Shown piece after piece: positions 2,868 through 57,048 of a stretch of DNA of 64,000 bases (position 1 is its first letter; every line of letters begins with the position of its first letter). Below the pieces are notes generated by a model. That model had not been told where the DNA came from and searched no databases. It worked only from the letters and a program-made list of their open reading frames with translations. Made by a program: the position numbers and the translations under genes. This DNA is from Stegostoma tigrinum (taxonomy: Eukaryota), in the NCBI RefSeq assembly GCF_030684315.1, contig NC_081385.1:29169247-29233246 (forward strand). Direction: 5' to 3'.

Positions 2868-3957
2868 TTCTCACACACCACCCTACCAACCTCCGGATAC
2901 AACGCATTATCCTCCGACACTTCCGCCATTTACAATCCGACCCCACCACCCAAGACATTTTTCCATCCCCACCCCTGTCTGCTTTCCGGAGAGACCACTC
3001 TCTCCGTGACTCCCTTGTTCGCTCCACACTGCCCTCCAACCCCACCACACCCGGCACCTTCCCCTGCAACCGCAGGAAATGCTACACTTGTCCCCACACC
3101 TCCTCCCTCACCCCCATCCCAGGCCCCAAGATGACATTCCACATTAAGCAGAGGTTCACCTGCACATCTGCCAATGTGGTATACTGCATCCACTGTACCC
3201 GGTGCGGCTTTCTCTACATTGGGGAAACCAAGCGGAGGCTTGGGGACCGCTTTGCAGAACACCTCCGCTCAGTTCGCAACAAACAACTGCACCTCCCAGT
3301 CGCAAACCATTTCCACTCCCCCTCCCATTCTCTTGATGACATGTCCATCATGGGCCTCCTGCACTGCCACAATGATGCCACCCGAAGGTTGCAGGAACAG
3401 CAACTCATATTCCGCCTGGGAACCCTGCAGCCATATGGTATCAATGTGGACTTCACCAGTTTCAAAATCTCCCCTTCCCCCACTGCATCCCTAAACCAGC
3501 CCAGTTCATCCCCTCCCCCCACTGCACCACACAACCAGCCCAGCTCTTCCCCCCCACCCACTGCATCCCAAAACCAGTCCAACCTGTCTCTGCCTCCCTA
3601 ACCGGTTCTTCCTCTCACCCATCCCTTCCTCCCACCCCAAGCCGCACCCCCAGCTACCTACTAACCTCATCCCACCTCCTTGACCTGTCCGTCTTCCCTG
3701 GACTGACCTATCCCCTCCCTACCTCCCCACCTATACCCTCTCCACCTATCTTCTTTACTCTCCATCTTCGGTCCGCCTCCCCCTCTCTCCCTATTTATTC
3801 CAGTTCCCTCCCCCCATCCCCCTCTCTGATGAAGGGTCTAGGCCCGAAACGTCAGCTTTTGTGCTCCTGAGATGCTGCTTGGCCTGCTGTGTTCATCCAG
3901 CCTCACATTTTATTATCTTGGAATCTCCAGCATCTGCAGTTCCCATTATCTCTGATC
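2868..3957 (+). mobile_element. Penelope-like element (Neptune-type), 5'-truncated, young; GIY-YIG endonuclease plus terminal repeat (family A)
   Basis: Open frame to the stop at 3601 contains the CNRRKCYTC linker and NVVYCIHCTRCGFLYIGETKRRLGDRFAEH. A C-rich tract and a hammerhead-bearing 3' end follow. 12-bp TSD ACAGTTGTATAG at 2856-2867 and 3958-3969. Confidence 0.93.
3824..3855 (+). ncRNA. Minimal type I hammerhead ribozyme in the PLE terminal repeat
   Basis: CU-CUGAUGA(3826-3832)-A-GGGUCUAGGCCC (stem II)-GAAAC(3846-3850)-GUC(3851-3853)-AG. Matches the conserved core and the minimal hammerheads known from PLEs. Confidence 0.85.
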
Positions 3958-9268: not shown

Positions 9269-10650
9269 CTACATTGATGACTGTATCAGCGCCACCTCAC
9301 ACTCCCATGAGGAACTTGAACAGTTCATCAACTTTACTCACAGCTTTCACCCCAACCACAAGTTCATCTGGACCATCTCTGATACCTCTCTCTCCTTTTT
9401 GGATGTTTCTGTCTCCATCTCTAGTAAACACCTCAAAAGTGACATCTACTTCAAGCCCACCAACTCCCACAGCTACCAAGACTACACCTCCTCTCACCCA
9501 CCTTCCTGCAAAAATGCAATCCCTTACTCCCAATTCCGATGCGAACACCACATCTGCTTGCAAGATGAGGCATTCCTCTCCCAAACATCAACTGTCTTCA
9601 TATCTCCAGGGCTGCAACATCCCCTCTTCAGTGGTTGAAAACATTGTCAACTGCATCTCTTGTGTTTCCCACACCTCAACCTTCACACCCCATCCCCCAG
9701 TAAAAACAAAGACAGAATCCCACTTGTCCTCATGTATCACCCCATTAACCTCTGGATTCAACACATCATCCTCCAGCAATTCCGCCAGTTGTAAACTGAT
9801 CCCACTACGAAGGCCATATTTCCCTGCCCACCCTTATTTGCCTTCCAGTGGGACCGCGCTCTCCGCGACGCCCTCATCCACTCCACATTCCTCACTAGCC
9901 CCACCACACCTGGAACCTTTCCCTGCAACTGCAGGAGGTGTTACACCTGCCCGTACACCTCCCCCCTCACCTCCATCCCAGGCCCCAAAAAAACCTTCCA
10001 CATCAGACAGACGTGCATACCTGCCAATGTGGTCTACGGCATCTGCTGCTCCCGGTGTGGCCTCCTCTACATCGATGAGACCAAGCGGAGGCTTGGAGAC
10101 CGCTTTGTACAGCACCTGCGCTTGGTTCATGACAAACAACAACACCTCCCAATTGCGAAGCACTTCGACTCCCCCTCCCACTCCTTGGACAATGTGTCCA
10201 TCCTGGGCCTCCTCCTGTGTAACAACGACACCACTCGGAGACTGGAGGAGCAGCACCTCCTATTCCTCCTTGGGAGCCTACAACGTAATGGTCTCAATGT
10301 GGACTTTTACTCACTTCAAAACCTCCCCACCCCCGACCTCATCCCATGACCAACCCTCCCTGTCATCTCTGCCTCCTCGGCCTGTCCATCTTCTCTCCCA
10401 GCTATCCCCTTCTCCTACCTCACTGACCAACCCCCACCTGCACTCACTATCATCACCCCACATACCTCCCCCAGCCCCAGCCCTCCTTTCTCTATTTATT
10501 TCAGATCCCCCTACCCTCCCCCATTTCTGAAGAAGGCTCCTGATCCGAAACATCAGCTTTCTTGCTCTTCTGATGCTGCTTGGCCTGCTGTGTTCCTCCA
10601 GCTCCACACTCTGTTATCTCTGACTCCAGCATCGGCAGTTCTTCCTATCT
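9269..10650 (+). mobile_element. Penelope-like element (family B): RT C-terminus, GIY-YIG and terminal repeat, frameshifted; its first 30 bp lie at 7061-7090
   Basis: YIDDC...SLSFLDV...YFKPTNSHSY...AIPYSQF and VYGICCSRCGLLYIDETKRRLGDRF. 7061-7090 encodes GTIYHFFLRY, which joins YIDDC. Confidence 0.92.
10525..10556 (+). ncRNA. Minimal hammerhead ribozyme, family B, partly decayed
   Basis: CUGAAGA(10527-10533)-A-GGCUCCUGAUCC-GAAAC-AUC-AG. GUC to AUC fits CpG decay. Confidence 0.6.
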
Positions 10651-10882
10651 CCCCATGTCTGCATGGGTTTCCTCCGGGTGCTCCGGTTTCCTCCCACAGT
10701 CTAAAGATGTGCAGGTTTGCTGAATTAGCCATGCTAAAGTGCCTAGGGATGTACAGGGTAGGTGGATTAGCCATGGAAAATGCAGGGTTATAGGGTAGGG
10801 GGAATGGGTGTGTGTGGGATGCTCTTCAGAGAGTGGGCAAGGACTCAATGGGCCAAAGGGCCTGCTTGTAGGGATTCAATGA
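10648..10882 (+). mobile_element. HE1 V-SINE body and tail
   Basis: GGGTTTCCTCCGGGTGCTCCGGTTTCCTCCCACAGTC...GGGCCAAAGGGCCTG. Confidence 0.85.
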
Positions 10883-11585: not shown

Positions 11586-11683
11586 AACAAAAACAGAAGT
11601 TGCTGGGAAAGCTCAGCAGGCCTGGTAGCATCTGTGAAGGAAAAGACAGTCAGCGTTTCGGGTCCGGTCACTGTTGCTCAGAC
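11586..11683 (-). mobile_element. PLE terminal-repeat mini-insert (family C) with decayed hammerhead
   Basis: Minus strand reads TCTGAGCAACAGTGACCGGACCCGAAACGCTGAC...CAGATGCTACCAGGCCTGCTGAG. 12-bp TSD CCCTTGGGAAGG at 11574-11585 and 11684-11695. Confidence 0.8.
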
Positions 11684-14346: not shown

Positions 14347-14557
14347 CAATCTGAGATAACACGGTGTGAAGCTGGATGAACACAGCAAGCCAAGTAGCAT
14401 CAGAGGAGCAGGAAAGTTTGATGTTTCCAGACGGGACCCTTCTTCAGAAGAAAGTTTCCTGCTCCTCTGATGCTGCTTGGCCTGTTGTGTTCATCCACCT
14501 TCACACTGTGTTATCTCAGATTCTCCAGCATCAGCAGTTCCTACTATCTCTGTAACT
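14347..14557. mobile_element. Fold-back PLE terminal-repeat insert (family B)
   Basis: Arms of about 65 bp (14348-14415 and 14456-14522) are inverted, with an antisense decayed hammerhead between them. 9-bp TSD CACTTACAT at 14338-14346 and 14558-14566. Confidence 0.85.
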
Positions 14558-16365: not shown

Positions 16366-16508
16366 GATCAGAGATAATGGGAACTGCGGATGCTGGAGAA
16401 TCCAGGATAACAAAGTGTGGAGCTGGATGAACACAGCAGGCCAAGCAGCATCTTAGGAGCATAAAAGCTGAAGTTTCGGGCCTATACTCTTCTAAGATGC
16501 TGCTTGCC
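16366..16508 (-). mobile_element. Fold-back PLE terminal-repeat insert (family A)
   Basis: Reverse complement of about 3835-3957 followed by a short sense arm (CTAAGATGCTGCTTGCCCTG). 17-bp TSD CTGATTTTTAAAAGTGT at 16349-16365 and 16509-16525. Confidence 0.88.
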
Positions 16509-21024: not shown

Positions 21025-22180
21025 GTCATTGAGTCATACAGTCATACAACATGTAAACACACCCTTCAGTCCAACTCATATGCGCTGATCAGACATCCCA
21101 ATCTGACCTAGTCACATTTACCAGCATCTAGCCCTAACCCCTCCCTATTGCTGGACCATCCTGATGCCTTTTAAATGTTGTAACTGTATCCCCCTCCACG
21201 ACTTCATCTGGCAGCTTGTGCATACACATACTGCCCTCAGTGTGAAAAAGATACCCCTCAGGTCTTTTTTTTAATCTTTCCTCTCTCACCTTAAGCCTAT
21301 GCCTTCTAGTTCTGGATTACCCATCCTAGGAAAAAGGCCTTGCCTATTTCCCCTATCCATGCCACTCATGATTTTATAAACCTCTGCATGGTCACTCCTC
21401 AGCCGCTGACATTCCAGGGAAAAATGTCCCAGCCTACTCAGCCTCTCGCTATAATTCAAACCCTCCAACCCTGGCAACATCCTTGTAAATCTTTTCTGGA
21501 CCCTTTCAAGTTTAACACCATACTTCCTATAATAGGATGACTAGAACTGTACACAGTATTCGAAAAGTGGCCTGACCAATATCCTGTACAGACATAACAA
21601 GGTCCCAACTCTTATATTCAATGTACTGACAAATGAAGGCAAGCATGCCAAAAGCCTTCTTCACCGCCCTGTCTATTTGCAACTCCACTTTCACGGAAAC
21701 ATGCATCAGCAACTCTAGATCTCTTTGTTTGGCAACACTCCCCAGGGCCCTACCATTAAGTGTAGAAGTACTGCCCTAGTTTGCCTTACCAAAATGCAAC
21801 ACCTCACATTTGTCTAAATTAAACTCCATCTGCCACTCCTTGGCCCATTGGTCCATCTGACGAGGGTCCCGTTGTACGCTGAGGTAATCTTCTTCACTGT
21901 CCAATACACCACCTATTTTGGTTTCATCTGCAAATTTACTAACCAAACCTCCTTTATTCACATCCAAATCATTTCTATAAATGATGAAGAACAGTGGACT
22001 TAGCACTGATCCTTGTGGCACACTGCTGGTTACAACCCTCTATCACCCGCCTTTGTCTCCTACCTTCAAGCCAATGTTATATCTGACTGGCTGATTCCCC
22101 CTGGATTCCAAATGACCTAACCTTACTAACCAGTCTACCATGAAGAACCTTGTTGAATGCTTTGCTTAAGTTAATGTAGA
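21025..22180 (-). mobile_element. CR1 LINE RT-to-3' fragment, decayed
   Basis: ORFs PQGSVLSP...FADETKIGG...WQMEFNLDKC, VKKAFGML, and MLPGLEGLNYSERL. Confidence 0.9.
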
Positions 22181-23461: not shown

Positions 23462-23572
23462 TAATGCCAGGAGCTGACCGTGCAGTGTGCTCCTACCAGA
23501 GAAGGAACAATTGTGACAATTAGTGGGACAAAAGTTACATTTGATCTTAAAAACCAACATAGAATCACTGAT

Positions 23573-23689
23573 AGTAAAGTGTGAAGCTGGATGAACACAG
23601 CAGGCCAAGCAGCATCTCAGGAGCACAAAACTTGACGTTTCGGGCCTAGACCCTTCATCAGAGAGCATCTGCAGTTCCCATTATCTCTG
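23573..23689. mobile_element. Inverted (fold-back type) PLE terminal-repeat insert (family A) with an intact hammerhead core on the minus strand
   Basis: 23573-23663 is antisense to 3824-3915, then the sense 3' tail AGCATCTGCAGTTCCCATTATCTCTG follows. 14-bp TSD ATAGAATCACTGAT at 23559-23572 and 23690-23703. Confidence 0.9.
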
Positions 23690-24052
23690 ATAGAATCACT
23701 GATCTTAATGCAGAACAACTGAAATCAAATACCTCCACATACAGTCTCAGATATCTGATTATCTTATAATGGGTTTTAAATAAAGATTTTGTAATTTGTG
23801 TCCAAGATCCATTCAGGTTTTAGATAAGACAAATCAATCAAGATTTTTTCATAAGCAACAAGTAAAGCTGAAAATCAACCCACAGAAGAGCATTGTGTTA
23901 ATAAAGCACTTTACCATTCAAATCCTATTAAAATGCAGGGCTGTTTAAATGATGGTTGGAAAGATTAACTGAGATTGTAAGTTTAATTCAGTGTTGCATT
24001 GTCAAATGAATATCTCCATAGCTTCTCTGTCTGTCATTAAGTTTATTTTTAA

Positions 24053-31341: not shown

Positions 31342-33850
31342 GAGGGATTCTTACCATGCGGTCTGGTGTGCTTTCTCATCCGATCTTACCATACCCACCT
31401 CCATGATTCCCTACCTTGCCCCTGTGATGCCTCTCATATCCAATTTCTGCCCCATCTTATCATGTGCCATTTCCAGAATGGCTTGCCACTGCGGGTATTT
31501 GCCAAAACACTGGCAACTCTTGCACCACTTTGAAGCTACCTTTACTTCAGAAATGGTCAAAAATGGCATCTGGACATTTTGGAGAAGGGAAAGACGGCAT
31601 TGCAGTTCTCTGACAGAGGCCTGCAGGCCCTGGAGGACAGAGTGGTCCAGAACAGGTCACTGTCCCCAGTGACCATGCCACCAATCCTGCCAGCCTGGGT
31701 CAGTGCCATCTCCAGGTGCAGTGGAATGGGCAGCAATGCAGAAAGAAGGTCAATAATCTTCTCCAGTCTGCCAGGGTGAGTCTCTCCTCGCTGCTACATC
31801 ATGCTCACTACATCCCTGTTACTGCAGCCACACCTCCCTTTAAAAGCCCTATACTCGATGTTTCCTGCAGCAAAGGCTCATGCTCTGCCACCATCATTAA
31901 TGCCTGTAACACCCTCTAATCTGCTCTCGTTCTGCGCCCCCATCTCCCTCTGAGGCAATGCCCTCTGTGTTGCCTCCTCAAACCCTTTGGTAAACTTCAC
32001 CAACTTTACCTCAGATGTACCAACATTTACAGCCATGCTACCAACTCATTTACCCTTTTTGCTCATCTCAGGAGAAGACAGCCTATAAGAGGGCAGAGAG
32101 AATCCTTATGGGAGGGCCTCCATGTCCTCACCCCCTATAAGGAAGGAATCCTGCCCTTGGAACAGAAACCTGGGAATGCTCCTGTGGGGTTGCCAAGACA
32201 AGAGGTTAAGTACCACTGTTCATTCCATTGCAACTTCCACATTAATCCTGCTGCTACTCTCAATCATTGTACATGACTACTAATGAGTGATAGTAGGAAC
32301 TGCTGATGCTGGAGTCAGGGATAACACAGTGCGGAGCTGGAGGAACCCAGCAGGCCAGGCAGCATCAGAGGAACAGGAAAGCTGATGTTTTGGATCGGGA
32401 TCCTTCTTCAGAAAATGACTCCTAATGGCTTCTAATCACTGGCTGCAACGCTTTCTCTCTCTTTGGTCTTGCAGGTTGCCTACTCAATACCTAAGCAGGG
32501 AAATGCCCAACTGCCCCAGAAGACAAGAGTATGGAGACATCAGGAGAAGCATTGTAAAGGCCACTATCTGCACCCCACTCGCTCAGGTACTGACAACCCA
32601 GGGACAGTAGGAATGTAGCTAGACAGTGTGGATACAGGAGTGGGTCCTGCACTGCTGCCAATCAGGGACTTCACCTAAATGCGCTGGGCAGTGCAGCAGC
32701 AGCTACAATTGCCTTCATTGCCTCAGAAGCTGGACAAGTGCAGTAAATCTTGTGGCCATCTGGCCAGCTTCATGGAGAGGTTGACAGCTGCCGCGGAGAG
32801 CTGGGTGGCTTCAGGAGCTGCTGGTGTGCTCCCACAAGTGGCACACCATCACTAAATCCATTGATCCTCGGGTCTGAGGACATGGTGTAGGTGTGGTCAC
32901 ACCCTGGGCCTTTGGCACTGGCTGCTCAGGACACTGCAGAGCTGGTTAAGCCCTCCACCTCCACCCTACCTACCCACCTCCAACCTGTGGAAATTTAAAC
33001 CATTGTATAGGATGACCCAAAGGGCTAAACGTGCTGATGATATTCAACAGCTGCATGACCTTAAATGAGTCCTGAGAACATTCCTACACGCACTGAAGCC
33101 GGCACAACCAACATGTTTTTCGATGGCTGTTTTATCTGTGCCTGGCTGGTTGTTGCACAGTATAAGAGAGAGAGGTTTGTTCCAAGCTGCTGGATTTCAC
33201 CTCGAACTGAGATGGCAAACAGTGCCAGGAACAACCTCAGTCTCCATACCAGCCATTGATCGGGGGGTCCCTGACGGGCAGAAGGGTGTGAGGCATATTG
33301 CTCTTTTCCTCTCTTCTTCATTCTTTTTATTTACTTAATAAATGTTCCTTTGATTTTTCATCTTTTATTATTCCTCAACAAATGTTCATATGTAAGCAAA
33401 TTGCTGTTGTCGAGCCTTCTCTTAACTCCATTTAACCGAATCTGAAAACAACCGTTTGCATACACTCAGCCATTGAGAGTCGTCACCTCAGGCAAGAATA
33501 CCCTCAATACATCTAGCCCATCGCAACACAAGTATGTCTGGGGTCAGTCTACAAACCTCCATTGCCAACAGACTCTGCTGCTGAGCAAGCTTCCTCCACC
33601 CCAGCTGGAGGAGTAGGGAGTACACCGAGATGCAGTTGGAGGGGGGTGGTGGGGGGAGGTGGGTATAGAAGAAAACACATTCAATACATTTCAATGACTC
33701 AGGTGAAAATGGTATATTTATCACTCTCAGTTTCTGCATAAATGTTTCTGACATTAACTTTCATATGTTTGTGAGTCACTCCATGTAAGCATTAAACACA
33801 TTTTCATACCATCTCACTGCAGGTCACGGTTTCGCCGACAGCGGTTTGCA
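31342..33850 (+). mobile_element. PIF/Harbinger DNA transposon relic with a spliced Myb/SANT-like gene
   Basis: KGKTALQFSDRGLQALEDRV and WNGQQCRKKVNNLLQSAR, donor GTGAGT at 31776, acceptor CAG at 32069-32071, then EKTAYKRAERILMGGP. This is typical of Harbinger Myb/SANT proteins. The nuclease gene is only faintly suggested on the minus strand near 33450-33800, and the boundaries are approximate. Confidence 0.6.
32286..32414 (-). mobile_element. Solo PLE terminal-repeat insert (family B)
   Basis: Antisense to 10525-10650 and starts at TTCTGAAGAAGG. 13-bp TSD ATGACT(A/C)CTAATG at 32273-32285 and 32415-32427. Confidence 0.85.
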
Positions 33851-34361: not shown

Positions 34362-34955
34362 ATATATATCATATGAGGCAGCACAAAGGAACTACGCAGA
34401 GCAGAGGAAAATCACCTGTACAGTGTATTCAAAAAGAATGGGTACCCTATGAACACAGTCCGCCGATTTCTCAGCAACAAACCCAAACAAACAGACAAAA
34501 CGGGCTCAGAAACCATAACCACTCTCCCCTACATCAAAGACATTTCCGAAATGACTGCCAGACTACTCAGAGCACCCCCCCCTCAAACCCCTGCATCCAA
34601 CACTCAGTACCAGGTTCAATGGTACCAAGTGTGGGGGGGGGGGTCCGAGTAGTCTGGCAGTCATTTCAGAAATGTCTTTGATGTAGGGGAGAGTTGTTAT
34701 GGTTTCTGAACAAACACATTGACTTGGAGCCAATCTACCATCCCCTGAGAAAAAGAACAGAAAATGACATCACCAACCCAAGGAAACTTAACCAGATAAA
34801 TAGAAAGTGGGACATAACACCAGCGCTTCGTCGGAGGCTCACTGATGATGTTACCTAGAATGGTGACAAAACGTCTGAAAACTAACCTTCCAGCTCAGCG
34901 AGGAAACTCACATCCAGAACCTCAACCTGAACTACAAATCTTCTCAAAACTTGCT
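34362..34955 (+). mobile_element. Rearranged Penelope/Poseidon-like element (family D) with an internal inverted repeat and hammerhead
   Basis: EENHLYSVFKKNGYPMNTVRRF...TLPYIKDISEMTARLLR, a PLE RT-thumb/linker region. Inverted arms at about 34506-34570 and 34643-34708. 13-bp TSD GGCCATATATCTC at 34349-34361 and 34956-34968. Confidence 0.85.
34839..34878 (+). ncRNA. Minimal hammerhead ribozyme, family D, with a mutated G12
   Basis: UCA-CUGAUGA(34842-34848)-U-GUUACC-UAGAAU-GGUGAC-AAAAC-GUC(34873-34875)-UGA. Stem I is UCA/UGA and stem II is 6 bp. GAAAC is AAAAC at 34868. Confidence 0.75.
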
Positions 34956-35081: not shown

Positions 35082-35480
35082 ATGGAAGAGGCCGGGGGTG
35101 GGGAGATTTTAAAACGGGTGAATTCCATGTTGCTCCTCCAGTTTGCAGGTGGTATCATTGTGGCACTGGAGGTGGCCCAAGATGGACATGTCACTCAGGG
35201 AGTGGGAGGAGGAGTTAAAATGGTTGGTGACTGGAAGATGTTATCGTTTGTCACACACAGAGCGCAGATGCTGTACAAAACAGTCTCCGGGTCTCTGCTT
35301 GGTCTCACCGATGTAGAGGAGGCCATATCGGGAGCAGTGGATACAGTAAACCAAGTTGATAGATGTGCAGGTGAACCGCTGTCTACCCTGGAAGGTTTGT
35401 TTTGGGCCTTGAATGGAGGTGAGGAGGGAGATGTAAGGGCAGGTGTAGCACCTCCTGTGGTTTCCAGGGGTAATGGGGTT
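35082..35480 (-). mobile_element. Penelope-like GIY-YIG fragment
   Basis: RRCYTCP...FTCTSINLVYCIHCSRYGLLYIGETKQR. Confidence 0.88.
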
Positions 35481-38400
35481 AGTGGGAGTGTGTTCAAGTC
35501 CATTGTGCAAATGACAGAAAATTAAACCCTGGAACAATTACAGTGTGTACCCCCTTAAGGTACTGAACAATCCCTAAAAGATGTGAAGTTATTAATTCAC
35601 TAACAGCAGCTAAATAGCTGCAATGTGCCAACTACTATGTTAACAATTAAACAGCTTGCTCATGTTGACTTCCATGACTGTTGATAAAATCACATCAGTG
35701 GCAGTGTCAAAAGAAGGTTAAAACCCGGTCTCAGAATGATTCATTAAAGGGCCTACTTTGTCAGATCATTAACTCAAATTAATTACCAGATTAAACCACC
35801 GTCAGAAACACTTTGCTCAATTCAATCCAGTTTAAATCAATCCCTTTTAAAGCCACTTACTGAGTAAGTAAACAATGTTCATTGGCAAAACACAGAGACA
35901 GACTGCAAACTGTACTTTGATGAATGTAATCTAAAGCAGCTGTCTGAAGAGACCATCAAAGATAGCCTCATCAATCATTACATCATCATGCCAGGGTGCT
36001 AATTAACAGAATTTTAACTGATCAGGGAGCAAGGCGACAGGTTTCACTGTGGATCCCCTTTAAGAAATTAACTGTGGATTGTGCGTGAAGCCTTGGCAGG
36101 AGGAGATGAGAGAGGGAAAGAAGCAAACAGCTCTTACAATCCTTTTGGGTCTGCAATATTTGTCAAATATACAGAGTGACTTGCTTTGGATCACAAAGAC
36201 TACGATGCATCCAGGGATGGAAGCCATACTATGTCAAGAAAATCTTTAATTGAATGAGGCAAGGTGAATATGTCAACTCTCTATTAATTTATAAAACACT
36301 TACATGTTCTTCACCTACTCTCCTAAAGGTGTTGACTTGTGAATCCCCAATAGCCAGGACCCACATGCATTCAAAGTAAGTGGACACCCAGGAGGGGTAA
36401 GGGATTCATGGTCAGGGCTCGGAGCTGGACTTGAGTTTATCTGCATCACCTTCACAACTCACTTGCTAACTGTCCTGCATTCTCATTTGTGCCATTTGTG
36501 GGTAAAGGATGCTGATGCCATCTCTCTTTTCTGTAATTGGGTCAAAGACCCTATTTAGTTTGCAATGGGAGAGGGACAACCACAAGTGAATCTTAACAAG
36601 AAGAGGATCTTGTCTTCATGTGATGCAGTTTATTGTATGACAGCAATTAGGTACAAGTTACATTAGTGAGATAAACAAGGTACATTAGTGAAATCGCTAC
36701 TAAAATAATAAGGAGACCTGTGGACATAGGTCTACACTGCACGAGGCCATCAGATTGAGTGAAGTTTAATTCAGTGTCCAAAATTAGATTTCCCTACCTC
36801 TGAGCTAGGAGGCCTGGGTTCAAGTCTCATCTCTTCCAGAGGTGTGTCATAATACATCTGATCAGGTTGATTAAAGTAACAGATGTCTGGTGCTTGGAAT
36901 GGGATTGTGTACTTTGAAATTCCAGGTTCAATGGTACCAAGTGAGAGCGAAGGATCACAGACACATCTCTCTTTGGTCATGTCAGCAAATACACCTGCAC
37001 CCAAAAGATATAAAAGCTTCCATTCCAATGTTACGCATATTTTCTTTAAGATTTTACTTACTCTCTTGGCCTTTAAACTGTTCTAAGACACATTCCCACC
37101 TGTAATGTGCATATAACATCAACACAAGTACAAACTGAATATGGAAAAACTGCAGAGTGAATGAGACCATAATTCAATCTTTCAGGTCTCCCTTTTCTCT
37201 ACTCCCATTTAGCTTTGTATTTACTGCCAAAAGACTTTCAAAGGTCTTCAAGTGTATTACACCAGATCCAAACTTGACAGAGCATGTTGTTCATGGTTCC
37301 TTTTCTTAAGAAGCCCTTTCCCTGGAACAAAGCAGCATCCAACACTCAGCACCCTCCCAACACCCACCCCACATCTCCTTCACTGAAATGGAACATGATG
37401 AAGGCCAGTCAGATCTCAGAAAATAAGATGTGATGGACAACTCCACTAAGTCTCAATTGCCCTTGTAATTCACTTTCTTGTTCAGAAGCAAGCAGCAAAG
37501 AAAGACAGTTTGAGGTCTTATTTTTAAAAGTAGAGTGAAAGTCAAGGGATACATTTTATATTCAAGTGACTCTCACTTAATGGAGGAGACTCCAAGATTG
37601 TGACACATTTATGGACCCTACACTGGGTGCAAATGAAAGGAATGGGCCTTGTCTGCTACATATGTGACCTCGAACCACAGCTCAAAATTTGAAGCACGAG
37701 TCCATTCTTTTCCAATTTGTTTCTGAGCTTTGGGTATTTTGATCTTTTGTTTGAACAACTGGCTGTTTTGAATTCTTTAAACTCAAGATTGTTGTTTTCT
37801 TTCAGCATAAAAGGATATATTGATTAAATGTATTGAACGCATCACACATAAGACAGTCAGCATATTTCCAATGTCCATCCCTACTCTCCACTCTGCCTTC
37901 TGAATGACTGAATAGTGAGACAGCTGTTTAAGTGGAACAGAGAAAAATTACAAGTCTGTCAGAAAATACAAAATCTCACGGCTCAAAAACATCAGCATCA
38001 CACAAGTCATCCCTAGCATCATCCCAATTCCAGCACCCTGCCTGTCTCAGGCAATGACAGCATGTGATGTCATTCCCCTCTTCCAAACCCAGTCAGTGTG
38101 GGAGCTCCATCCCACAGAACTATACAATCAGACTTAAATTCTCAGCAGGTCCTATAAACAGCAATTCTCCAAAACAGACAATTCACCATTTCTCACTTTT
38201 ACAACTTTTATTTATAACTGTGTTATACTATAGCTCAAACATTAAATTCCATGTGATCACATTTAATGTTCTTCCATGTCAAACACTCACACTTGTTTCA
38301 TCTCTGAAGATATTCTTCCCTGTTGATTGAAAGATAATATTAACTTGCCCCCTGCTTCCCAGAAGCATGTTTGGGTCCAACCTCGCAGACACGTGGAGCC

Positions 38401-41899: not shown

Positions 41900-43560
41900 A
41901 AAGATAAAACATTTCCAAACAGATATGCATTTGTCCAAAGGCATTATTTGTCAATCAATAATTATAGAAGCAGATGAAACAAAGTTTACAAAACTAATGC
42001 TCAAAGTTCTGAGTAATGCTTTGAAAATTCATCTTGATGTCATGGTCATATAGCCCTTTATACATTGTTCTCTCATAAAAACTGAAAGAACTGTAGATGC
42101 TGTAAATCAGGAACAAAAGCAGAAGTTGCTGGAAAAGCTCAGCAGGTCTGGCAGCATCTGTGAAGAAAAAGTCAATGTTAACGTTTTGGGTCAGATGACC
42201 CTTAGAACTTCTGAGGAAGGGTCACCGAGTTAACACCAATGTTAACTCTGATGTTTTCTTCACAGATGCTGCCAGACCTGCTGAGCCTTTCCAGAAAATT
42301 AGTTTTTCTATACATTGTTATCTGTTGAATTAAATTGACAACTTGGTTGTATGCTGCTGTTGCTGTCACTCAACATCACCATCCAATCAAAATTGTTAGG
42401 GTGTTCTTCCTCATTCCCTTCGAGAATGATTGGAGTGTCGTCCAAAGGTCTGAACTGGCTTCTGTTCTTTCACAATGTAGCATCCGCATCAGCAAGGACT
42501 TTGCATGAACTAGGCTGGTTGCATATTTCAGAAACCATTAATTTTTGTACCACCATCTCTCATACTCTGTCCAGTGCACAGGTTTGATCATTCTTGACCC
42601 ACTTGCTTTCATTTTGTACTGACTCCGAAGAAAATTGCCTTGTATCTTGGAATAGTTAGACAATCAGTTGCATGCAAGTTTGTCTGCATTTACCTTCTGT
42701 GCTAGGGGTGGTAATCCTTTGCTATTGTTGTTGCATGAAAATTCAGCAATGTGAAAATCTTGCACTGTTGCTTGAAAGTTAACAATAATTGATTTGCTTT
42801 TATATACCATATGCTCTACTAGACTATTTGAATGTGGTTAATAGTGTAACAATGTAATATTGGCCAATTGCCATTTAGTGTGCTAGTGTGGTATGATTCT
42901 GTGCACTGAGATCTGTGCATACCGATAGTCTTGCTATTGATGGACCATTGGTAATTACCAGACAGCAGATTTTGGGAAGCCAACCTGAACTTGCCTATTG
43001 GTACTGTATTGTGATTCTGCCAATGCACAGAACTGATGATTCTTTACATGTTATGAAACAGTCACTTGTAGGGTGTATCAGAGTGCCATGTGCTGAGGAA
43101 CGAGTCTTTCAAAATGAAAATCGGTAATACATTGGCAATAGCTCAACTTTAGCTTTTAGTGTGTATCGTCCTGCCTTTTCAGGATATGATCATAATGTTT
43201 CTAAAAGCTTCTGACTGCCTTGAACCATCCACATGGTTTGTGAGGTTAACAACACGGAAAGATTGATCATCTTATGAAATATGCCTTTTGTTTAGTTCAC
43301 TTTGAATTGATGCCACGTGCTTTACAGATAACAAGGGTCTCCAATAAAGCTTTTGGGTAGGTGCGACAAACTGCAACTGCTATAGACTTTGTTGGTTTGG
43401 TGCACTTTGCTCAACCTAGCATTAAGTTGCAGCTAAAGCATGTAATATTTTGGCATACCACTATGGCTTCATATTTCTGTCCATGACCAAATAATACATC
43501 AATAGTATATTTCTTTCCCAAAAATCATCCCCATGGTTATTTTTAATTCTAATTCTCACA
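41900..43560 (-). mobile_element. Ty3/Gypsy pol relic (integrase region)
   Basis: Minus strand ITNGP (42955-42941) and PHSNSLVEHMV (42837-42806) resemble the integrase SDNGP and PQSNGLAERMV motifs. Boundaries are approximate. Confidence 0.55.
42070..42308. mobile_element. Fold-back PLE terminal-repeat insert (family C)
   Basis: Inverted arms meet at ATGACCCTTAGAAC/TTCTGAGGAAGGGTCACC, the hammerhead start. 11-bp TSD TATACATTGTT at 42059-42069 and 42309-42319. Confidence 0.85.
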
Positions 43561-43639
43561 CAACAATATATGTAAAAACTTTATTCCATTCTTCCAGTTT
43601 CTCCTCTGTTGCATTTGTCCAAAGATTGCAAAGTTCCAT

Positions 43640-44760
43640 TCTGCCATTTCTGATATGTCTTCCTTTTTGTCTATCAACGTAAGATTCTAATTCAGGTTAA
43701 TGGGACACTCCATTATGTCTGATCCATCTCACATGTTCCTGTTTTCACCCCTTCTTCTCTCTCCCAGAATGCTTCCCCTCATCTTTACTTACCATCCTAT
43801 CAGCCTCTGCATTCAGCAGATTATCCTTGGCCATTTCCATTACCCCTAACATGATGCCAACTGCAAACACATCTTCTCATGCCTTCCCTTTGGCTTTCCA
43901 AAGAGACATTCCTTCAATGATGTTTACAGTGTATTCCATAGACATCCTACGCAACTCCACCTTCTTCTCAGGCACATTTCCATACACGTGTAGGGAATGC
44001 AATACATATCCTTTGATCTCTCTTCTAGCCATCCTGGGGCCTGCACATGCTTTCCAAGTGATGCAGCGATTTCCTTCTACTCTTTTTAATCTAGCATATT
44101 GTATTCAATTTTAACGATGCATCCGCCTCTACACTGAGGACAGCAAATGAAAACTGGATGACCGCTTTGCAGAATCGGTTCACAGGCACAATTCCAAACT
44201 TTGTGTCACTTGTCATTTCAATTCTTGCCCTTATTCTGACCTTTCTATCCTTGGACTGTGAGATTGCTGCAATGAATCTCAATACACGCACGAGGAATGA
44301 CACCTCATCTTTCAAGGAGGCACTCCCTTGGCTTTGGGAGGCAACATTCAGTTCGTCAATTTTAATCATAACCTGCATCTTGATTTTTTTGCCTTGCTGT
44401 TTAAGTTTCTTCAAATCACTTGGTTTATTCTATCGCTTTGTATTTAGATGGCTGCTAGGCAGTGTCCACGCCTCGTTTAGACAACTTTGGTTTCCTTACA
44501 TGGCCCACTATCATTCCCTTCGGCTTTTGCGCCATGAAACTTTCTGATGTTTAATCTTCCTTTGTCCTCCACCCTATCAAATCTCATTCCTTTCCTTCTC
44601 CTAAACTGACCTTCCCTTGTTCCGGCAATTGCATTTCCCTGTTTCCTCGATTCTGTGGATTAGTCATTGCCCTGAAAGAGTGACTGTTTCTCTCCCACGA
44701 CCTGCTGTGTATTTCCAGCATTTTTAGTTTGCTTACATTACAAATTTACAGCATCTGTGT
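43640..44760 (+). mobile_element. Old Penelope-like element (GIY-YIG region and terminal repeat)
   Basis: GTFPYTCRECNTYP...FNLAYCIQ and ATGACCGCTTTGCAGAA parallel the element at 2868. The decayed tail reads CCTGCTGTGTATTTCCAGCA. Confidence 0.7.
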
Positions 44761-46490: not shown

Positions 46491-47509
46491 TATATGTTGC
46501 CCTTATTAAAAAATATCAGGTGTATCAATCCTTTGAAATCCATTCCATTGTTGATAGTTCTTCAAGAGAAAAGGGAAAATAAGGGTTTTTTTGAGTAGTC
46601 TACACCTCTGAGTTTGAAGAACATATTAAATAATTAATTTGATTGCATAAAAATTGTGTAAAACTTCTGTTTAATTTGATATTTTGAATAATTCAAAACA
46701 TCTTGATGAAAAGGTCTAAATAATAAGGAATAGCTCAGTTCAGCCATTTTCATCCCAGGTGGCAGCATTCAGCAACATTCACTTTTGGCATGTATTTCAA
46801 CAGATCATTTTCGAGCAACGTGAATCTTGTAACATTAAGTCTCAGCAAAACTGTACAGTCTTTGCTGGGTTTGCGATGTAAACAATGGTCCTTGGAGGGT
46901 TAAGGGATGGGGGAAGACACTCGTAATGTCACTTTAATGCACAGTAACATTTTTTTGCTTCCTTTCTCTTGAGTCAAATGCTGCCCCCTGCCCTGGGGTC
47001 GTGAGAAAAACAGTGGGTAAGTTTCTCAACAGCAACACAGCTCACGTCTGAACAAAAAGCAAACATACCAGTGTCAAGCAGAAACTTTCCATAATCTGTC
47101 ACAAGTATGTACTGGAGACATACACAAGCTGATCTGTCCCTAACTCCAGACGTCCCAGAAGCTGTCATACTGGTCAAAGGACCTGAGGGTTATCTATAAA
47201 TGTAGTCAAAATAGCAAACAAATGAGGAAAAGCTCCAGCACATATGGTAAAAGCATATTGCAGGGAGGAAGGGACCAGTGAAAAAAAATCTTGTGGAGGC
47301 AGGGGGTTGTTTGATGTGCTAAATGAGTATTTTGCCACTGTCTTCACCAAAATTGCCAACATAGATGTAAATGAGGTGGGAGAGATAATGTCAGATAAGA
47401 CAGGAAATAGAGAAAGAGGAGGCATTTCAACATTAGCTATCTTCAAAGTAGTGAAGCCACTTGGTACAAATTGGATGTATCTTAGATTACTGAGGGAAGT
47501 AAAAGTTAA

Positions 47510-48014
47510 CAGAAACAGAAGTTGCTGGAAGCTCAGTGGACCTGGTAGCATCTAGATACTACATACTAGAACTGTACAGTGCAGGAACATACCCTTTGGC
47601 CCACAATGTTGTGCCAAACGTGATGCCAAATTAAACTAATCCTTTCTGCCTGCTCTTGGTCTGTATCCCTCCATTCCTTGCATGAAGAAAAAAATCAGAG
47701 TTAACTGATTCAGAATTGGGTTTGCGATGTAAACACTGGTCCTTGGAGGGTTAATTGACGGGGGAAGATACTCATAATGTCAGTTTCATGTACTTTTGCT
47801 GAGACTTAATGTTACAATATTCACTTTGCTTGAAAATGATTTGTTGAAATACTTGCCAGAAGTGAACGTTGCTGATTCAGAACTCAGAAAGGTCACCAGA
47901 CCCAAAACGTTAACTCTGGTTTTTTTTCTTGACAGATGCTGCCAGACCTGCTGAGCATCCAGCAATTTCTGTTTTTGATCCTGATTGCAGCATTCGTAGT
48001 TCTTTCGGTTTTTA
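47510..48014. mobile_element. Fold-back PLE insert (family C) holding captured local DNA and a nested CR1 3' end (about 47553-47683)
   Basis: Antisense arm at 47510-47552 plus 47684-47704 and sense arm at about 47883-48014. 15-bp TSD GGAA(G/A)TAAAAGTTAA at 47495-47509 and 48015-48029. Confidence 0.8.
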
Positions 48015-52110: not shown

Positions 52111-53711
52111 TGATGTGAGATGATGCGACAGTCTTATGTGATACTTGTGTCAGCTCATGAGACATGGGTCATGTAGTACAAAAGATTTAAATTAGCTTTT
52201 ATTATACCACCTAACATATACATATGTACACTATAATCACAGGCACTTGCACAACTGGGCTCAAGCTAAGCAATTCAGATACATTGTAGCATTCTTTCCT
52301 CAGTGCTTCATGCTGCAAAGGGGCTCAGCAAGATGGAGCCTGAGACCTTTAAACCATTAGTTCAAATGTCCTGACATGGTGATGACATCATGAGGGTGCC
52401 CTTTAAAGATATCTTCCCGATCTGCTGCTTTGAAGAGACTAGCATGAGAGTCTAGCAGAAAAAGCAAAGTCATGAATCATTAAAGATATAAAAACCCCAG
52501 AACTCAGTAAGTTAGCCACAATTTCACAGGGAAGAGTTATGAAAACTGCAGCTGGACAATTTTTAAAAAATGTGTAGAGTGAAGTGCATGTTGGATTTAA
52601 TTATAAAAAGAGGGAAAGATATCACTTTTACCTGGAAGGAAAACTTAATTGACTCTATGATTACAACCCTTTATGCTGTTAACTATGTTATATAAATGCA
52701 GATTTTTATTGTTAGTGGGGGTACTCAATGACTCCTTTGCATCAATGCCACAGATTGCAAAGGAAGCTTAACACTGTAAGTTGCACACAGCTAATACTGT
52801 GCCGTTAGCTACCTTCCTCAGAAAGCACATATTGCAAAATCCACCCTTACAGAAGATCCATATGCACCCTAGAGCAAATCAAGCTGCGAGATAAACCAAA
52901 TTATCAACAAACGTATGGACCTAGTTTATTGTTGGACTCTATACAGTCAGTCAATTACATTCAAATCCAAATCAATTACACTCCAAACCAGCCTTCGTTC
53001 TATTGACTCTGTTTTCTCAAGGCAGTGGGAAGAATAGACGACAAGTGTAATCTCAGATCCCTCCCACCTTGGTCATATTCTCTTCCTCTCTCTTCCCTTG
53101 GGCAAAAGATACAAAACTTTGAAAACAAGTGCCAAGAGATTTGAGAACAGCTTCTTCCCGCTGTTATAGAGTCATAGGGCTATACAGCATGGAAACAGAC
53201 TTTTTGGTCCAACTCATCTATGCCGACCTGATATCCTAATGAAATCTAATTCCATTTGCCAGCTTTTGGCCCATATCCCTCTAAACCCTTCCTATTCATA
53301 CACCCATCCAGATGCCTTTTAAATGTTGTAACTGTACCAGCCTCCATCACCTCCTCTGGCAGCTCATTCCATACACACACCACCCTCTGTGTGAAAAAAA
53401 TTCCCTTGTGTCCCTTTAAGTCTTTCCCCTCTCACTTTAAACCTATGCCTCTAATTTTGGAGACTCCACGCTGGGACAAAGACTTTGGCCACCCTCCAGT
53501 CTCCGATGCTCCAGGGGAAAAAAAAATCCCAGCCTATTCAGCCTCCTCTATAGCTCAAACCCTCCAACTCTGGCAAATTTCTTGTAAATCTTTACTGAAC
53601 TCTTTCATGTTTACCAACACTTTTCTGACCTCAGGAAGACCAGTATTCTTTTCGCGGCCTCGCTAACGTCTTGTACAGCTGCAACATGACATCCCAACTC
53701 CTATACTCAAT

Positions 53712-53935
53712 AGAGATAATGGGAACTGCAGATGCTGGAGATTCCAAGATAATAAAATGTGAGGCTGGATGAACACAGCAGGCCAAGCAGCATCTCAGGA
53801 GCACAAAAGCTGACGTTTCGGGCCTAGACCCTTCATCAGAGCTCTGATGAAGGGTCTAGGCCCGAAACGTCAGCTTTTGTGCTCCTGAGATGCTGCTTGG
53901 CCTGCTGTGTTCATCCAGCCTCACATTTTATTATC
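53712..53935. mobile_element. Perfect palindromic PLE terminal-repeat insert (family A)
   Basis: 53748-53841 and 53842-53935 are exact reverse complements with no spacer. TSD TCCTATACTCAATA at 53699-53712 and 53934-53947, with microhomology at the edges. Confidence 0.95.
53842..53873 (+). ncRNA. Minimal hammerhead ribozyme (mirror copy on the minus strand at 53810-53841)
   Basis: CUGAUGA 53844-53850, GAAAC 53864-53868, GUC 53869-53871. Identical to 3824-3855. Confidence 0.85.
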
Positions 53936-55931
53936 CTATACTCAATACACTGACTAACGAAAGCAAGCCTGGCAAACCACCCAGTCTATCTGCAACTTGA
54001 TTTTCAAGAAACTATGCACCTGCACCACGAGACCTCTTTCTTCCACAGTGCTCCCCACGGCCCGACCATTAACTGCTAATAGACTTATGAATGGACTTTT
54101 CATATACTAGAGTTGATCTTTCTCTGCACCTTCTCTGTTGCTGTAACACTATATTCTGCACTTTGTTCTATTATCCAGATTTATATAAGGTGTGGCTGGT
54201 CTGAATAACACACAAAATGATACTTTTCACTGTATCTCAGTACACATGACAATAATAAATCAAACCAAATCAAAAAATAAAAAGGAGAGATTATTTGCAA
54301 AACTCTAGTTGACAACAGAAATTCAATGGTCTTCGCCCGTGTCTCCATTTCTGTTGTTGAGCTGTTGGGGATAATAATCTAATGCCTCCACATTACAAGG
54401 CACATCTTCCATGACCTCAGAATATCCTAAATCACATCAAGTAATTCTAAAACATAATCACTGTTGTGATATAGGAAATGCACTGCCAATTTCTGCACAG
54501 CAGCCTCCCACTAATAAAAATGAAAGGTTTTACTCTGAAACTGGAGTCAATAAATGCTAGTCAGTTCCGCTGTTCTTCATCAAATAGTGGTATGAAACTT
54601 TCATCTACTGAGCCTCTGTGATGTATTGTCCAGAAAACTGCACCTCAAGACATTTCAACACTCCTTCAGCACTGCTTTGAACTGCAGTTCTACATTATGT
54701 GGTTACTCGTGTTTCCAGTTTTCTAACATCTATAATTTATCCCAAAGGAACTCTTACAACATAATATATATTCAACCAAACTGATATATCAGGTCCACTG
54801 CCAGTTTAATATTTGAAAGCTCTTTCTATTGGTCGGAAACAGGAGGTTTTCTGTTTCTAGAATGGTGAAAGCTCATTAATTGTTTTCCAATGATGGAAGT
54901 CAAATAACTGGGGCAGTACCGTTAGAACTGCTTGAGAGCTGAACTCAAAGCATCAGACTGCAATGTATAATAAGATTAACAATGGATGGGGAGTTGTTCT
55001 GAAGATTGGCTGTGTTTTGAATAGTGAAGCCCATTTCATAATAAGATAAATTATATAGAACAGAGGTATTGTGCAAAGACTTGAATTTCCTAGTGTTGTG
55101 CATCATTATTGAGTATCTCCGAAACCATTCTCTTGATTAATATAACTTAGTTAAATAGATTTCTGAACCCAGATGTCCGGAAGGATCAACCCAGCAAAAG
55201 TTACATTTTTCAATCTCACCTCAAAGGCAAGCTCTTGTCTCTCATGATGGGGTGGGGATAAAAAATTAAACTGTTTTGGAAGTTTATCTCATTTGTAGGG
55301 GCAGTTCACCACTGCTTAATCAAGGTGTTTAGTGTTTCACAGTGTAAACAGAGCCCGGCATATACCTTAAAATTTTCTTTGTACTTCATTCCTGGTCACC
55401 ATGAAACACAGCAATATTATTTAAGAGATGAAAATATCTACCAACAGATAATGCTGCATAATATTGCATTTGTTTATTCCTACAATGGCTGCATAGTGAA
55501 ATGGAACTAAAACGTGAAACTCATGAAGAAAAATAGCGTCCATCGATTCTTTGTGAATTCCACCTGCCTCATTCAACTTCTCAGAAGGTTTGCCATCACA
55601 ACTTCAAACCTAAAATTCAAAGTCACTACTTTGGGTTTTTCTTTCCGGTTAAGCCTTAGGGACTCCACTGGTTAATTTTAAAATATCCATAAATGTCATT
55701 TTTGAGCTGGAATTTGACTACAGCAACCGGCGCAAAAATGTTTCCTGCTCCTGGTATCTCTGCTGTAATCGTAAACTCTCAGTGCATTTGTAAATTGAGA
55801 TGCTGAAAGTAAAAAGGCATTTGACCTTCAATAATAGGCACAATTTTTTTAGAAGTGTTTAGCATAAATGAAACAAGTTTCTAGAAGTACATCAACCACC
55901 TCCCGTCATGATTTTAAAGCAATATTCTTAC

Positions 55932-55992
55932 CATTAAGTACAGCCAGTATTGACAGTATTGAAGTCCAGAGTGTCAACTGCGCTGCGTTCAT
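55932..55992 (-). CDS. Probable first coding exon of a secreted or membrane protein gene (signal peptide)
   Basis: Kozak-like ATCACCATGA at 55992. Translates to MNAAQLTLWTSILSILAVLN+G and ends at the donor G|GTAAGA (phase 1). It lies directly downstream of the CpG-rich promoter. The gene is not recognised. Confidence 0.65.
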
Positions 55993-56400
55993 GGTGATTC
56001 CTACAGTTTAATATCCAAAGAGACAAGCAGCTCCGGATTAGTTTCCCTAGAAAGTAATCTCTCGCACGAGAAGCTTGCAAACACACGACCTCAATTAATT
56101 CAGGACACCGACCTGCTGCACGATGCGGTCGTTTAAACCTTCGCCGGCCGGCAGAGACTGTGAACACGCGTGCAGACCATCAGCGATGTGACATCGGGTA
56201 CTGGTCGCCTCAAAGCTCTTGCAAGCACTCTCCAGTCCTTGGGAGTCCCCGGGAGCCGCCTGTCAATCAAAGCCCCTACCTGTCCGGGCAGGAGGCTCCG
56301 CCCCGTCACGCATTGGGGGCCAATCACCACCAGCACTTTGTCTGGAACGGCTTGATTGGCTCACTGCCTGCCAATCAAGCTCACCTGCGGGTTGACTCCA
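55980..56400 (-). promoter_or_regulatory. CpG-island-like promoter with a GC box and multiple CCAAT boxes
   Basis: The only CpG-dense non-repeat stretch in the window. CTCCGCCCC at 56296-56304; CCAAT/ATTGG at 56312-56316, 56320-56324, 56355-56359 and 56371-56375; CGTCA half-CRE at 56304. Confidence 0.75.
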
Positions 56401-56879
56401 CCCCCAACCCCCTGGTGGGTTCAATTCCCACTGAGAAAAAAAACACCTGCAATTACAGTGACAGTTCTCGTTATTTATTGCCATAAAACCAATAAATACA
56501 ATTGCTTAACTTCAGGCATATGAACAGAGTTTCCAAATTATTTGTTATTGTTAGGTTTAACTTTAGCATTTCATTGTTGTGGTGCAGAAGGAGACCATCT
56601 GGCCCAACATACCTGCACCAATTCTATAAGGTACAGTCAATCATCTGCCTTTTCCCTATATCCCTAAACACCATTTCTACCCAAGTAGCCATCCAATGAA
56701 TGCCTTGGTTGAATTTGCTTTTTTTCACATCACTTTAAATCTATGCCCCATCAATCTTTTATTTCAGTGATTTTTACAAATTCTTTCATGTGGTTTGTTT
56801 TTGTAACACGTGTAACGAAAACAAGTTCAAATTCTACGACATCTTCCCAACCCCCTTAAAAACACAACCTGGTATCTAA

Positions 56880-57048
56880 AATAAAATATGAAAATCTGAA
56901 GATGCTGGAAATCTGAAACAAAGATCAAAATTGCTGGAGGGATGCAGCTGGCCTGGCAGCATCTGTGGAGAGAAAGCAGAGACTATGTTTTGGATCAACA
57001 GACGCTGGCAGACATACAGATTTTCTCCAGTAATTTCTATTTTTCTGT
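56880..57048. mobile_element. Old fold-back PLE terminal-repeat insert
   Basis: AGATGCTGGAAATCTGAAACAAA...GGCAGCATCTGTG followed by the inverted CAGACGCTGGCAGAC...CTCCAGTAATTTC. No clear TSD. Confidence 0.6.

Follow-up and report, generated by a model that had tools for sequence, protein, structure and literature searches.

A 224-bp insert at 53.7 kb in a 64,000-nt stretch of the Stegostoma tigrinum genome (the window, to which all positions refer) consists of two pLTR 3′ ends of a young, endonuclease-positive Penelope-like element (PLE), arranged head-to-head, one of them tailed, inside a target-site duplication (TSD). That this is a PLE insertion we regard as practically certain. The best explanation of its form is that it arose as a by-product of PLE insertion, without a selected function, and we assign a probability of about 0.7 to a mechanism in which nicks in the two target strands each prime a cDNA. 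The asymmetry of the tail, which was absent from the preliminary description of this locus, is the main clue to formation. Papers are cited by accession.

Results

Geometry, insertion site and age of the palindrome

The palindrome within this insert has no spacer. Its two arms of 94 bp each are complementary at 94/94 positions, with zero mismatch, and its centre reads CATCAGAG/CTCTGATG. This agrees with the perfect, spacer-less 188-bp palindrome of the preliminary description, although the span that had been assigned to it, 53712..53935, is really 224 bp long and includes an unpaired tail of 36 nt on one arm only. Exact spacer-less palindromes with arms of at least 7 bp occur three times in the 64-kb window, and the other two have arms of 9 and 7 bp; a palindrome with 94-bp arms is far beyond chance expectation. 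The left arm together with the tail is the reverse complement of positions 3824-3953 (130/130 sites), and the right arm is identical to 3824-3917 (94/94 sites), the terminal repeat to which the palindrome had already been matched. The symmetry ends exactly at the element boundary and does not extend into the unique flank. The features of the locus, and those of the related loci discussed below, are listed in Table 1.

The 14-mer TCCTATACTCAATA is present twice and frames the insert. Three of its bases are common to the element ends (53712; 53934-53935), and of the 14-bp TSD proposed earlier the repeat itself is there, while its unambiguous part amounts to 11 bp. The chance of a 12-mer match over 40x40 offsets is estimated at ~2e-4. 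When the flanks are rejoined, the LINE becomes continuous in the resulting empty site, and the copies at 21413-21762 and 7651-7734, the latter of which sits inside an RVT_1 ORF, align to it over the junction; we take this receiving LINE (APE+RT) to be of CR1 type. Zero differences over 94 or 130 sites correspond, under the rule of three, to a pairwise divergence of no more than ~2-3%. Judged from these counts the insertion is young, with an age that zero differences bound loosely; the earlier wording 'very recent' holds in so far as it means young.

Several observations concern the targets of insertion. Projected onto the LINE, the inserts at 2.9 and 53.7 kb occupy the same part of its RT region, no more than ~30 bp apart (2856-2867, 53700-53711). 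Two LINE copies with endonuclease and RT, at 743-4456 and 7091-9261, have opposite orientations and are 83-87% identical; the one is interrupted by the young PLE fragment and the other abuts an older PLE fragment (9270-10655). The motif TATAC stands at the TSD end away from the tail in 3/8 TSDs (including 42059-42069). This, like the proximity of the 2.9- and 53.7-kb inserts, may reflect a weak preference for certain targets, or chance where LINEs are abundant.

Table 1. Positions of the palindrome, its surroundings and related PLE inserts in the 64-kb window
Feature	Position	Strand	Remarks
Sister copy, young family, 5′-truncated PLE	2868..3957	+	linker zinc finger, GIY-YIG, pLTR, tail; 12-bp TSD 2856-2867 / 3958-3969
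Solo untailed arm	11586..11683	-	ends 1-2 nt before hammerhead core, directly at 12-bp TSD
Two-armed insert, older	14347..14553	.	left arm untailed, ends ~2 nt before core; right arm tailed, starts near cleavage site; 9-bp TSD
Two-armed insert	16366..16508	.	tailed left arm and 17-20-nt inverted second arm; 17-bp TSD
Two-armed insert, non-overlapping arms	23570..23692	.	untailed arm to 2-4 nt before core, and last 28 nt of tail; 14-bp TSD
Solo tailed arm	32286..32414	-	ends 3-4 nt before core, directly at 13-bp TSD (1 mismatch)
Old near-symmetric analogue, other pLTR family	42074..42308	.	junction at hammerhead 5′ edge; arms 72/92; TSD 11 bp exact (15 with 1 mismatch)
Old LINE fragment (presumably CR1-type) that received the insertion	53163..54100	-	empty site aligns across junction
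Left TSD copy	53699..53712	.	core 53701-53711; 53712 common with element end
PLE tail, 36 nt	53712..53747	-	100% identical to reverse complement of 3918-3953; end marks putative start site 1
Left palindrome arm, pLTR 3′ part	53748..53841	-	sense on minus strand
Predicted hammerhead core, left arm	53812..53839	-	CUGAUGA ... GAAACGUC; predicted cut between 53812 and 53811
Right palindrome arm, untailed pLTR 3′ part	53842..53935	+	outer end = putative start site 2 = 3917 of long copy
Predicted hammerhead core, right arm	53844..53871	+	CUGAUGA 53844-50, bulged A, 4-bp helix II, GAAACGUC 53864-71; predicted cut 53871/53872
Right TSD copy	53934..53947	.	core 53936-53946; 53934-53935 common with element end
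Candidate first coding exon of host gene	55932..55992	-	ATG, hydrophobic 20-codon signal-peptide-like leader, GTAAG donor
Oldest two-armed insert	56880..57048	.	arms 34/51 identical; no TSD found

Identity of the element

The sister copy identifies the family. Its ORF at 2753-3598 matches GIY-YIG with an E of 4e-4, a value below Pfam's cut-off, and the closest longer relatives of its protein are found in Stegostoma tigrinum (94% identity) and Rhincodon typus (92%), where RT/endonuclease is annotated; the 92%-identical Rhincodon protein contains RVT_1 and then GIY-YIG. Furthermore, tblastn located RT-thumb-EN fragments at 2864-3499 and 9270-10334 of the window. Upstream of the GIY-YIG motif the sister copy encodes CNRRKCYTC (CX4CxxC), and a zinc-finger-like CX2-5CxxC linker between RT and EN is present in Neptune and Nematis and lacking in Penelope and Poseidon (PMC8557442). 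This linker finger points to an element of Neptune/Nematis type rather than one of Penelope/Poseidon type. Between the former two we presume Neptune, in view of its occurrence in vertebrates (PMC4209133). Penelope is among the repeats listed for the whale shark (PMC8455134).

At 53.7 kb, the features of an endonuclease-positive PLE are found together: a hammerhead-bearing pLTR, a one-sided tail, a head-to-head 5′-truncated copy and a TSD. We infer that the insert was mobilised by the RT/endonuclease of the PLE itself. No full-length source PLE was found in the 64-kb window, which counts against the best explanation, a palindromic master elsewhere being possible.

The window contains other remnants. 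The fragment at 34362-34955 is a different PLE-like sequence, by eye Poseidon-like, with a hammerhead-like motif near 34843, a 13-bp TSD and an internal inversion (34506-34585 / 34630-34709); a 60-residue piece of it had no Pfam match. More decayed PLE endonuclease fragments lie at 35121-35462 (without a pLTR) and 43505-44757. The inverted repeats 46769-46857 and 47789-47875 are ~90% identical and 0.93 kb apart, and a pLTR arm follows directly at 47880; they are possibly a MITE or a DNA transposon remnant.

Paired pLTR arms elsewhere in the window

Head-to-head pairs are common among the pLTR loci of this window. A pLTR profile built from 12 window arms gave 23 matches at E ≤1, of which 4 with E 0.16-0.89 were dropped; the best match in 3 shuffled windows had an E of 1.6, and the 12 seed arms match by construction. 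The search retained 19 arms at 13 loci. Six of these loci, at 14.4, 16.4, 23.6, 42.1, 53.7 and 56.9 kb, are two-armed, and all six are head-to-head. Each of the six has exactly one tailed arm, an outcome with a probability of ~0.016 if tailing were independent at 0.5, and in five pairs the untailed arm ends at the inner site or no more than ~8 nt from it. The second arm at 16.4 kb, an internal piece of 17-20 nt, ends at neither start site and counts against the best explanation. Of the 11 loci searched for a TSD, 8 have one of 9-17 bp, and those at 9.3, 47.9 and 56.9 kb gave none; the loci at 43.5 and 47.5 kb lay outside the search.

The outer ends of these inserts are fixed: in coordinates of the sister copy, the tail ends at 3953-3957, and site 2 corresponds to 3917 in both the 53.7-kb and the 23.6-kb copies. 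The inner junctions differ at all two-armed loci. This combination of fixed outer ends and variable inner junctions is as expected if the junction forms anew each time. Arm overlap is limited to 20 nt or is nil in two of the six pairs; the arms at 23.6 kb do not overlap and are separated by an 11-nt gap, and in the 14.4-kb insert each arm has sequence that is absent from the other. Compared arm against arm, the older pairs have diverged, with 63/68, 19/20, 72/92 and 34/51 identical columns (92.6%, 78.3% and 66.7% for the three longer overlaps). This decay suggests that no function has been maintained. The notion that the structure at 53.7 kb is special or maintained is not supported, given head-to-head pairs at 6/13 pLTR loci and divergence in the older ones.

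A further observation concerns the two putative start sites. The sequence TTATC/TATCTC is repeated before both of them (3908-3917, 3944-3957; likewise 14510-14553), one copy at each foot of a small tail stem-loop, and is a candidate initiation signal, with one for each protein subunit.

Hammerhead motifs

Each arm holds one minimal type I hammerhead core, and our own descriptor scan found 4 intact motifs in the window, two of them in the palindrome, whereas Rfam at its gathering threshold gave no match in the 64-kb window. The two back-to-back hammerheads noted earlier are, in this sense, predicted cores. They resemble the minimal hammerheads of metazoan PLEs (PMC4209133) in the CUGANGA and GAAA boxes, the unpaired, bulged base before helix II, the G10.1-C11.1 pair, the palindromic ACGU (15.2-16.2) and the absence of helix III. 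They differ from the hammerheads of that study in a helix II of 4 bp, a native helix I of 2 bp (as in the long copy at 3826), against about 4-5 bp for the class, and, at 53.7 kb, a distance of 4 nt between the cores; in Schistosoma, dual hammerheads lie 100-700 bp apart on opposite strands (PMC4209133). The junction AG/CT (53840-53843, 53872-53877) can lengthen helix I to 6 bp, including one G-U pair, although the full hairpin outcompetes this fold. Only in a transcript whose 5′ end lies no more than a few bases from the junction would a 6-bp helix I make a difference.

Single minimal motifs from metazoan PLEs did not cleave in vitro and dimers showed low cleavage (PMC4209133), and an anole PLE ribozyme cleaves only when its protein is present (PMC11167929). 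By analogy, a minimal hammerhead alone should be near-inactive. The preliminary description had supposed that the hairpin matters by blocking cleavage; for a minimal hammerhead without helix III, expected to do next to nothing alone (PMC4209133, PMC11167929), that supposition falls away.

Positions at which the arms stop

Three of the 19 arms continue into upstream element sequence, and 16 are short. Eight of the short arms, or seven without the doubtful arm at 47.9 kb, have their ends 1-5 nt short of the C that opens CUGANGA, and they belong to three diverged pLTR families. At 11.6 and 32.3 kb the TSD lies directly beyond the arm end; because the next bases are TSD, these ends are not an alignment-edge effect. 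Against a null that is uniform over 135 nt, and with correction for 131 windows, the clustering of stops has a P between 5e-6 and 3e-3, depending on the arms admitted and on whether the 53.7-kb pair counts once, with stop positions read by hand to within 1-2 nt and a crude null that was chosen after the data had been seen. In the perfect palindrome, both arms made use of the preferred stop, 2 nt before the core.

In the predicted fold, the RNA can pair CUGAUG with CGUCAG to form a stem that starts at the hammerhead 5′ edge, and upstream of the core it forms a tract rich in C and U in which 6 of 123-124 nt are G. This stem or this tract might conceivably bear on the stop. Three other causes were considered and set aside. 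The ribozyme cut itself is ruled out as the arm end, with just one of the 19 arms (the right arm at 14.4 kb) beginning near the predicted cut; a hairpin in the nascent cDNA is a doubtful RT terminator, the predicted 3′-end hairpin being weak (-1.5 to -3.8 kcal/mol); and a splice junction was rejected as well, the conserved candidate acceptor being 23 nt before the core, not 2. This candidate 3′ splice acceptor, TATTTATTYCAG, follows a pyrimidine tract at 3792-3803 and 10493-10504, in both long copies, and fits the known intron of PLE pLTRs. It lies 21 nt before a reading frame through hammerhead and tail that is open at 3.8 kb and has stops in the decayed 10.5-kb copy.

Predicted hairpin RNA, candidate host gene and DNA stability

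In silico folding predicts that a transcript from either strand forms one long hairpin, with a stem of 92 bp and a 4-nt loop (-198 and -201 kcal/mol, against -30 for a single arm). Such a hairpin had been foreseen in the preliminary description, with a stem of 94 bp that would have to be shortened accordingly to 92 bp. The candidate first coding exon of a host gene lies 1996 nt from the palindrome, in keeping with the ~2 kb given before, and beside it is a CpG-rich, promoter-like stretch (56001-56500), with a CpG o/e of 0.73 and CCAAT boxes (55932-56500). If this exon is real, the palindrome is predicted to lie in the first intron of that gene. A phase-compatible candidate second exon (36798-36994) had no homologue, its only 2 multi-stretch matches resembling repeat noise.

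If transcribed, the intronic pre-mRNA duplex could be ADAR-edited or diced. We give about even odds to incidental editing or the production of some siRNA, without selected function. Rearranged Penelope copies with long inverted repeats are reported to give rise to siRNAs that match the inverted regions, with inefficient silencing (PMC3681739). The shark locus is like the Drosophila Penelope endo-siRNA loci in its inverted copies and predicted fold-back RNA (PMC3681739, PMC3136932), although the Drosophila loci are kilobase-scale repeats and the shark stem is one of 94-bp arms in a putative intron. Of the earlier proposal that the family generates its own silencing RNA, the siRNA is plausible, while the idea was already published for Drosophila Penelope, where silencing is inefficient (PMC3681739).

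At the DNA level, long arms, high identity and the lack of a spacer raise the risk of cruciform- or hairpin-mediated instability (PMC7999016). By analogy, the palindrome is a candidate fragile site until mutation breaks its symmetry, as had been suggested for it before. In contrast to the AT-rich human PATRRs, its centre has 40% GC.

Discussion

A proposed two-nick origin

We propose that an RT/GIY-YIG protein, probably a dimer, would nick both target strands ~11-14 nt apart, and that each 3′-OH would prime cDNA synthesis on uncleaved element RNA, one at the tail end (yielding 130 nt) and the other 36 nt inside (yielding 94 nt). Since both cDNAs are antisense to the RNA and lie on opposite strands, the product must be head-to-head. 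Both cDNAs would stop 2 nt before the hammerhead core, and they would be joined without a spacer either by one RT that jumps onto the 3′ end of the other cDNA as a template or by end joining. With two RTs on one RNA, the outer RT may stop short of the inner one, giving an insert of the 23.6-kb type with its 11-nt gap, or it may displace the inner cDNA, reach the same stop and jump to the freed 3′ end, giving the spacer-less junction. Other junction positions would produce the asymmetric copies nearby. Primer-template homology of one or two bases is present at each end of the 53.7-kb insert.

Parts of this scheme have relatives among other retroelements. In L1 twin priming both target nicks prime cDNA, which yields an inverted segment within one TSD from non-overlapping parts of one RNA. 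The 23.6-kb insert, with its non-overlapping arms, resembles such a product. Unlike in L1 twin priming, the two primers at 53.7 kb copied the same 94 nt, for which two RNAs or displacement of the first cDNA would be needed. The end-to-end template jumping of R2 provides an analogy for the junction step.

The closest biochemistry is that of the anole Poseidon element PAc, whose protein cuts and extends both target strands in vitro and has been modelled as a dimer; reverse transcription begins at a pair of adjacent internal sites between which the tail lies, and proceeds mainly on uncleaved RNA (PMC11167929). As in PAc, two putative start sites bound the tail in the shark family and the hammerhead lies just upstream (PMC11167929); for insertion of PAc the hammerhead is dispensable (PMC11167929). 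Unlike PAc, the 53.7-kb family has the CX2-5CxxC linker, and the analogy has to be read with the caveat that the in vitro work concerns the Poseidon clade and the shark family is of Neptune/Nematis type. The accessible part of PMC11167929 contains no assignment of strands to start sites and no joining of the second strand, nor does it describe, for PAc, head-to-head products or a stop at the ribozyme 5′ edge.

Comparison with described PLE structures

The insert is like endonuclease-positive PLEs such as Penelope of D. virilis and Pen2a of A. vaga in its inverted pLTRs, hammerhead and junction palindrome (PMC8557442), and also in the optional tail of 30-40 nt at one end only and a TSD of ~10 bp (PMC8557442). 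Unlike D. virilis Penelope and Pen2a, it is made up of two pLTR ends with nothing between them, and the whole insert is the junction palindrome. Its 94-bp arms compare with the 18- and 38-bp palindromes of rotifer pLTRs (PMC3846280). Inverted pLTRs with a one-sided tail are in print (PMC8557442, PMC2377424, PMC8969392), while the accessible parts of the reviews PMC6155905 and PMC6765202 hold nothing on inverted copies. Inverted pLTRs, junction palindromes, hammerheads on opposite strands and siRNA from inverted Penelope copies are already published. The formation of head-to-head repeats and the role of the hammerhead in PLEs are both described as unresolved (PMC8557442).

Non-LTR retrozymes, which occur in a chondrichthyan genome, are likewise short, non-coding hammerhead elements related to PLE pLTRs (bioRxiv 10.64898/2026.07.22.740005). 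According to the same source, retrozymes are head-to-tail tandems of units with a type I hammerhead each, in which dimeric cleavage is possible, whereas the 53.7-kb insert is head-to-head and never carries two sense ribozymes on one strand. Membership among the retrozymes was rejected, the arms being inverted and not tandem.

Other explanations

An inverted arm could also arise if a single cDNA or antisense template folded back at its end and was copied, and self-priming on an antisense template is the published reading of head-to-head junction palindromes in rotifer Penelope (PMC3846280). The self-complementary AGCT at the centre would suit such an event. A fold-back requires a loop or a palindrome encoded by the template, however, and the long copy reads CCCCCTCT upstream, not AGCT. 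Self-priming would also give no reason for independent inserts to share the site-2 base as the end of their second arm, and it cannot make the 23.6-kb insert, with its non-overlapping arms, or the 14.4-kb insert, with sequence unique to each arm; we therefore rate it as unlikely. Rather improbable, too, is a non-autonomous palindromic unit copied as a whole, the transcript hairpin being primed at its 3′ tail, or cut in the loop into RNAs that start ~2 nt before the core, with the stop at -2 inherited. In its favour, the minus-strand transcript is predicted to fold into the full hairpin, from which the 36-nt tail hangs free, the clustered stops coincide with the loop of that hairpin, and non-autonomous PLE derivatives have been described (bioRxiv 10.64898/2026.07.22.740005). 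A unit of this kind does not account for the different junctions in all six two-armed loci; moreover, no flank of a donor locus was carried along at 53.7 kb, and the arms show zero differences from the endonuclease-coding copy at 3824-3953.

A predicted perfect duplex of 92 bp from either strand, a probable intronic position and the siRNAs reported from inverted Penelope regions in Drosophila (PMC3681739, PMC3136932) could speak for selection of the palindrome as a means of self-silencing, in which the ribozyme is masked, Dicer or ADAR receives its substrate and the family is held in check. We consider this very improbable: the same review calls Penelope siRNAs inefficient silencers (PMC3681739), complementarity is lost in the older pairs (down to 92.6%, 78.3% and 66.7%), and the minimal ribozyme is expected to be inactive as a monomer. 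Two of the six pairs have an arm overlap of 20 nt or nil, and therefore the process is not aimed at long hairpins. Perfect palindromes are a known class of artefact, and a fold-back chimera in the library or assembly, or polishing that homogenised the arms, has to be weighed as well. An assembly fold-back is hardly credible here, with symmetry that stops where the element does, a tail on one side only and a duplicated target; taking out the insert restores an uninterrupted LINE, and five decayed analogues lie nearby. A MITE or foldback DNA transposon with long terminal inverted repeats would be short and non-coding with inverted ends and a TSD, as this insert is. DDE transposases produce TSDs that are fixed and short, whereas TSDs among the relatives of this insert range from 9 to 17 bp, its ends are asymmetric and its sequence is that of a retroelement pLTR, and this last reading has next to no probability left.

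What the stubs may record

As a single locus the insert matters little, being one of many short PLE stubs; its value is that of a clean natural footprint of PLE insertion. Thousands of shark copies would allow a tally of the fixed outer ends, the rule of one tail per pair and the clustering of inner ends, all of which an existing in vitro system could put to the test. Moreover, a young and perfect 188-bp palindrome would serve well as a marker with which to follow palindrome decay and insertion polymorphism in sharks. In the open PLE literature we met neither the one-tail rule nor a stop at the hammerhead 5′ edge; subscription papers and Repbase/Dfam may already describe short palindromic copies.

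It is possible, and we put this forward tentatively as something that we ourselves rather doubt, that PLE stubs record an insertion intermediate in which an asymmetric RT dimer uses the tail end to prime one strand and the inner site to prime the other, and in which the uncleaved hammerhead region marks the preferred end of reverse transcription. The main part of the hammerhead would then be that of a structural boundary bound by protein, or else it would mark where a short template RNA has its 5′ end. If true, the boundary reading would answer the question of what PLE hammerheads do, and active shark PLEs would be a steady source of spacer-less palindromes, and with them of fragile sites and intronic dsRNA.
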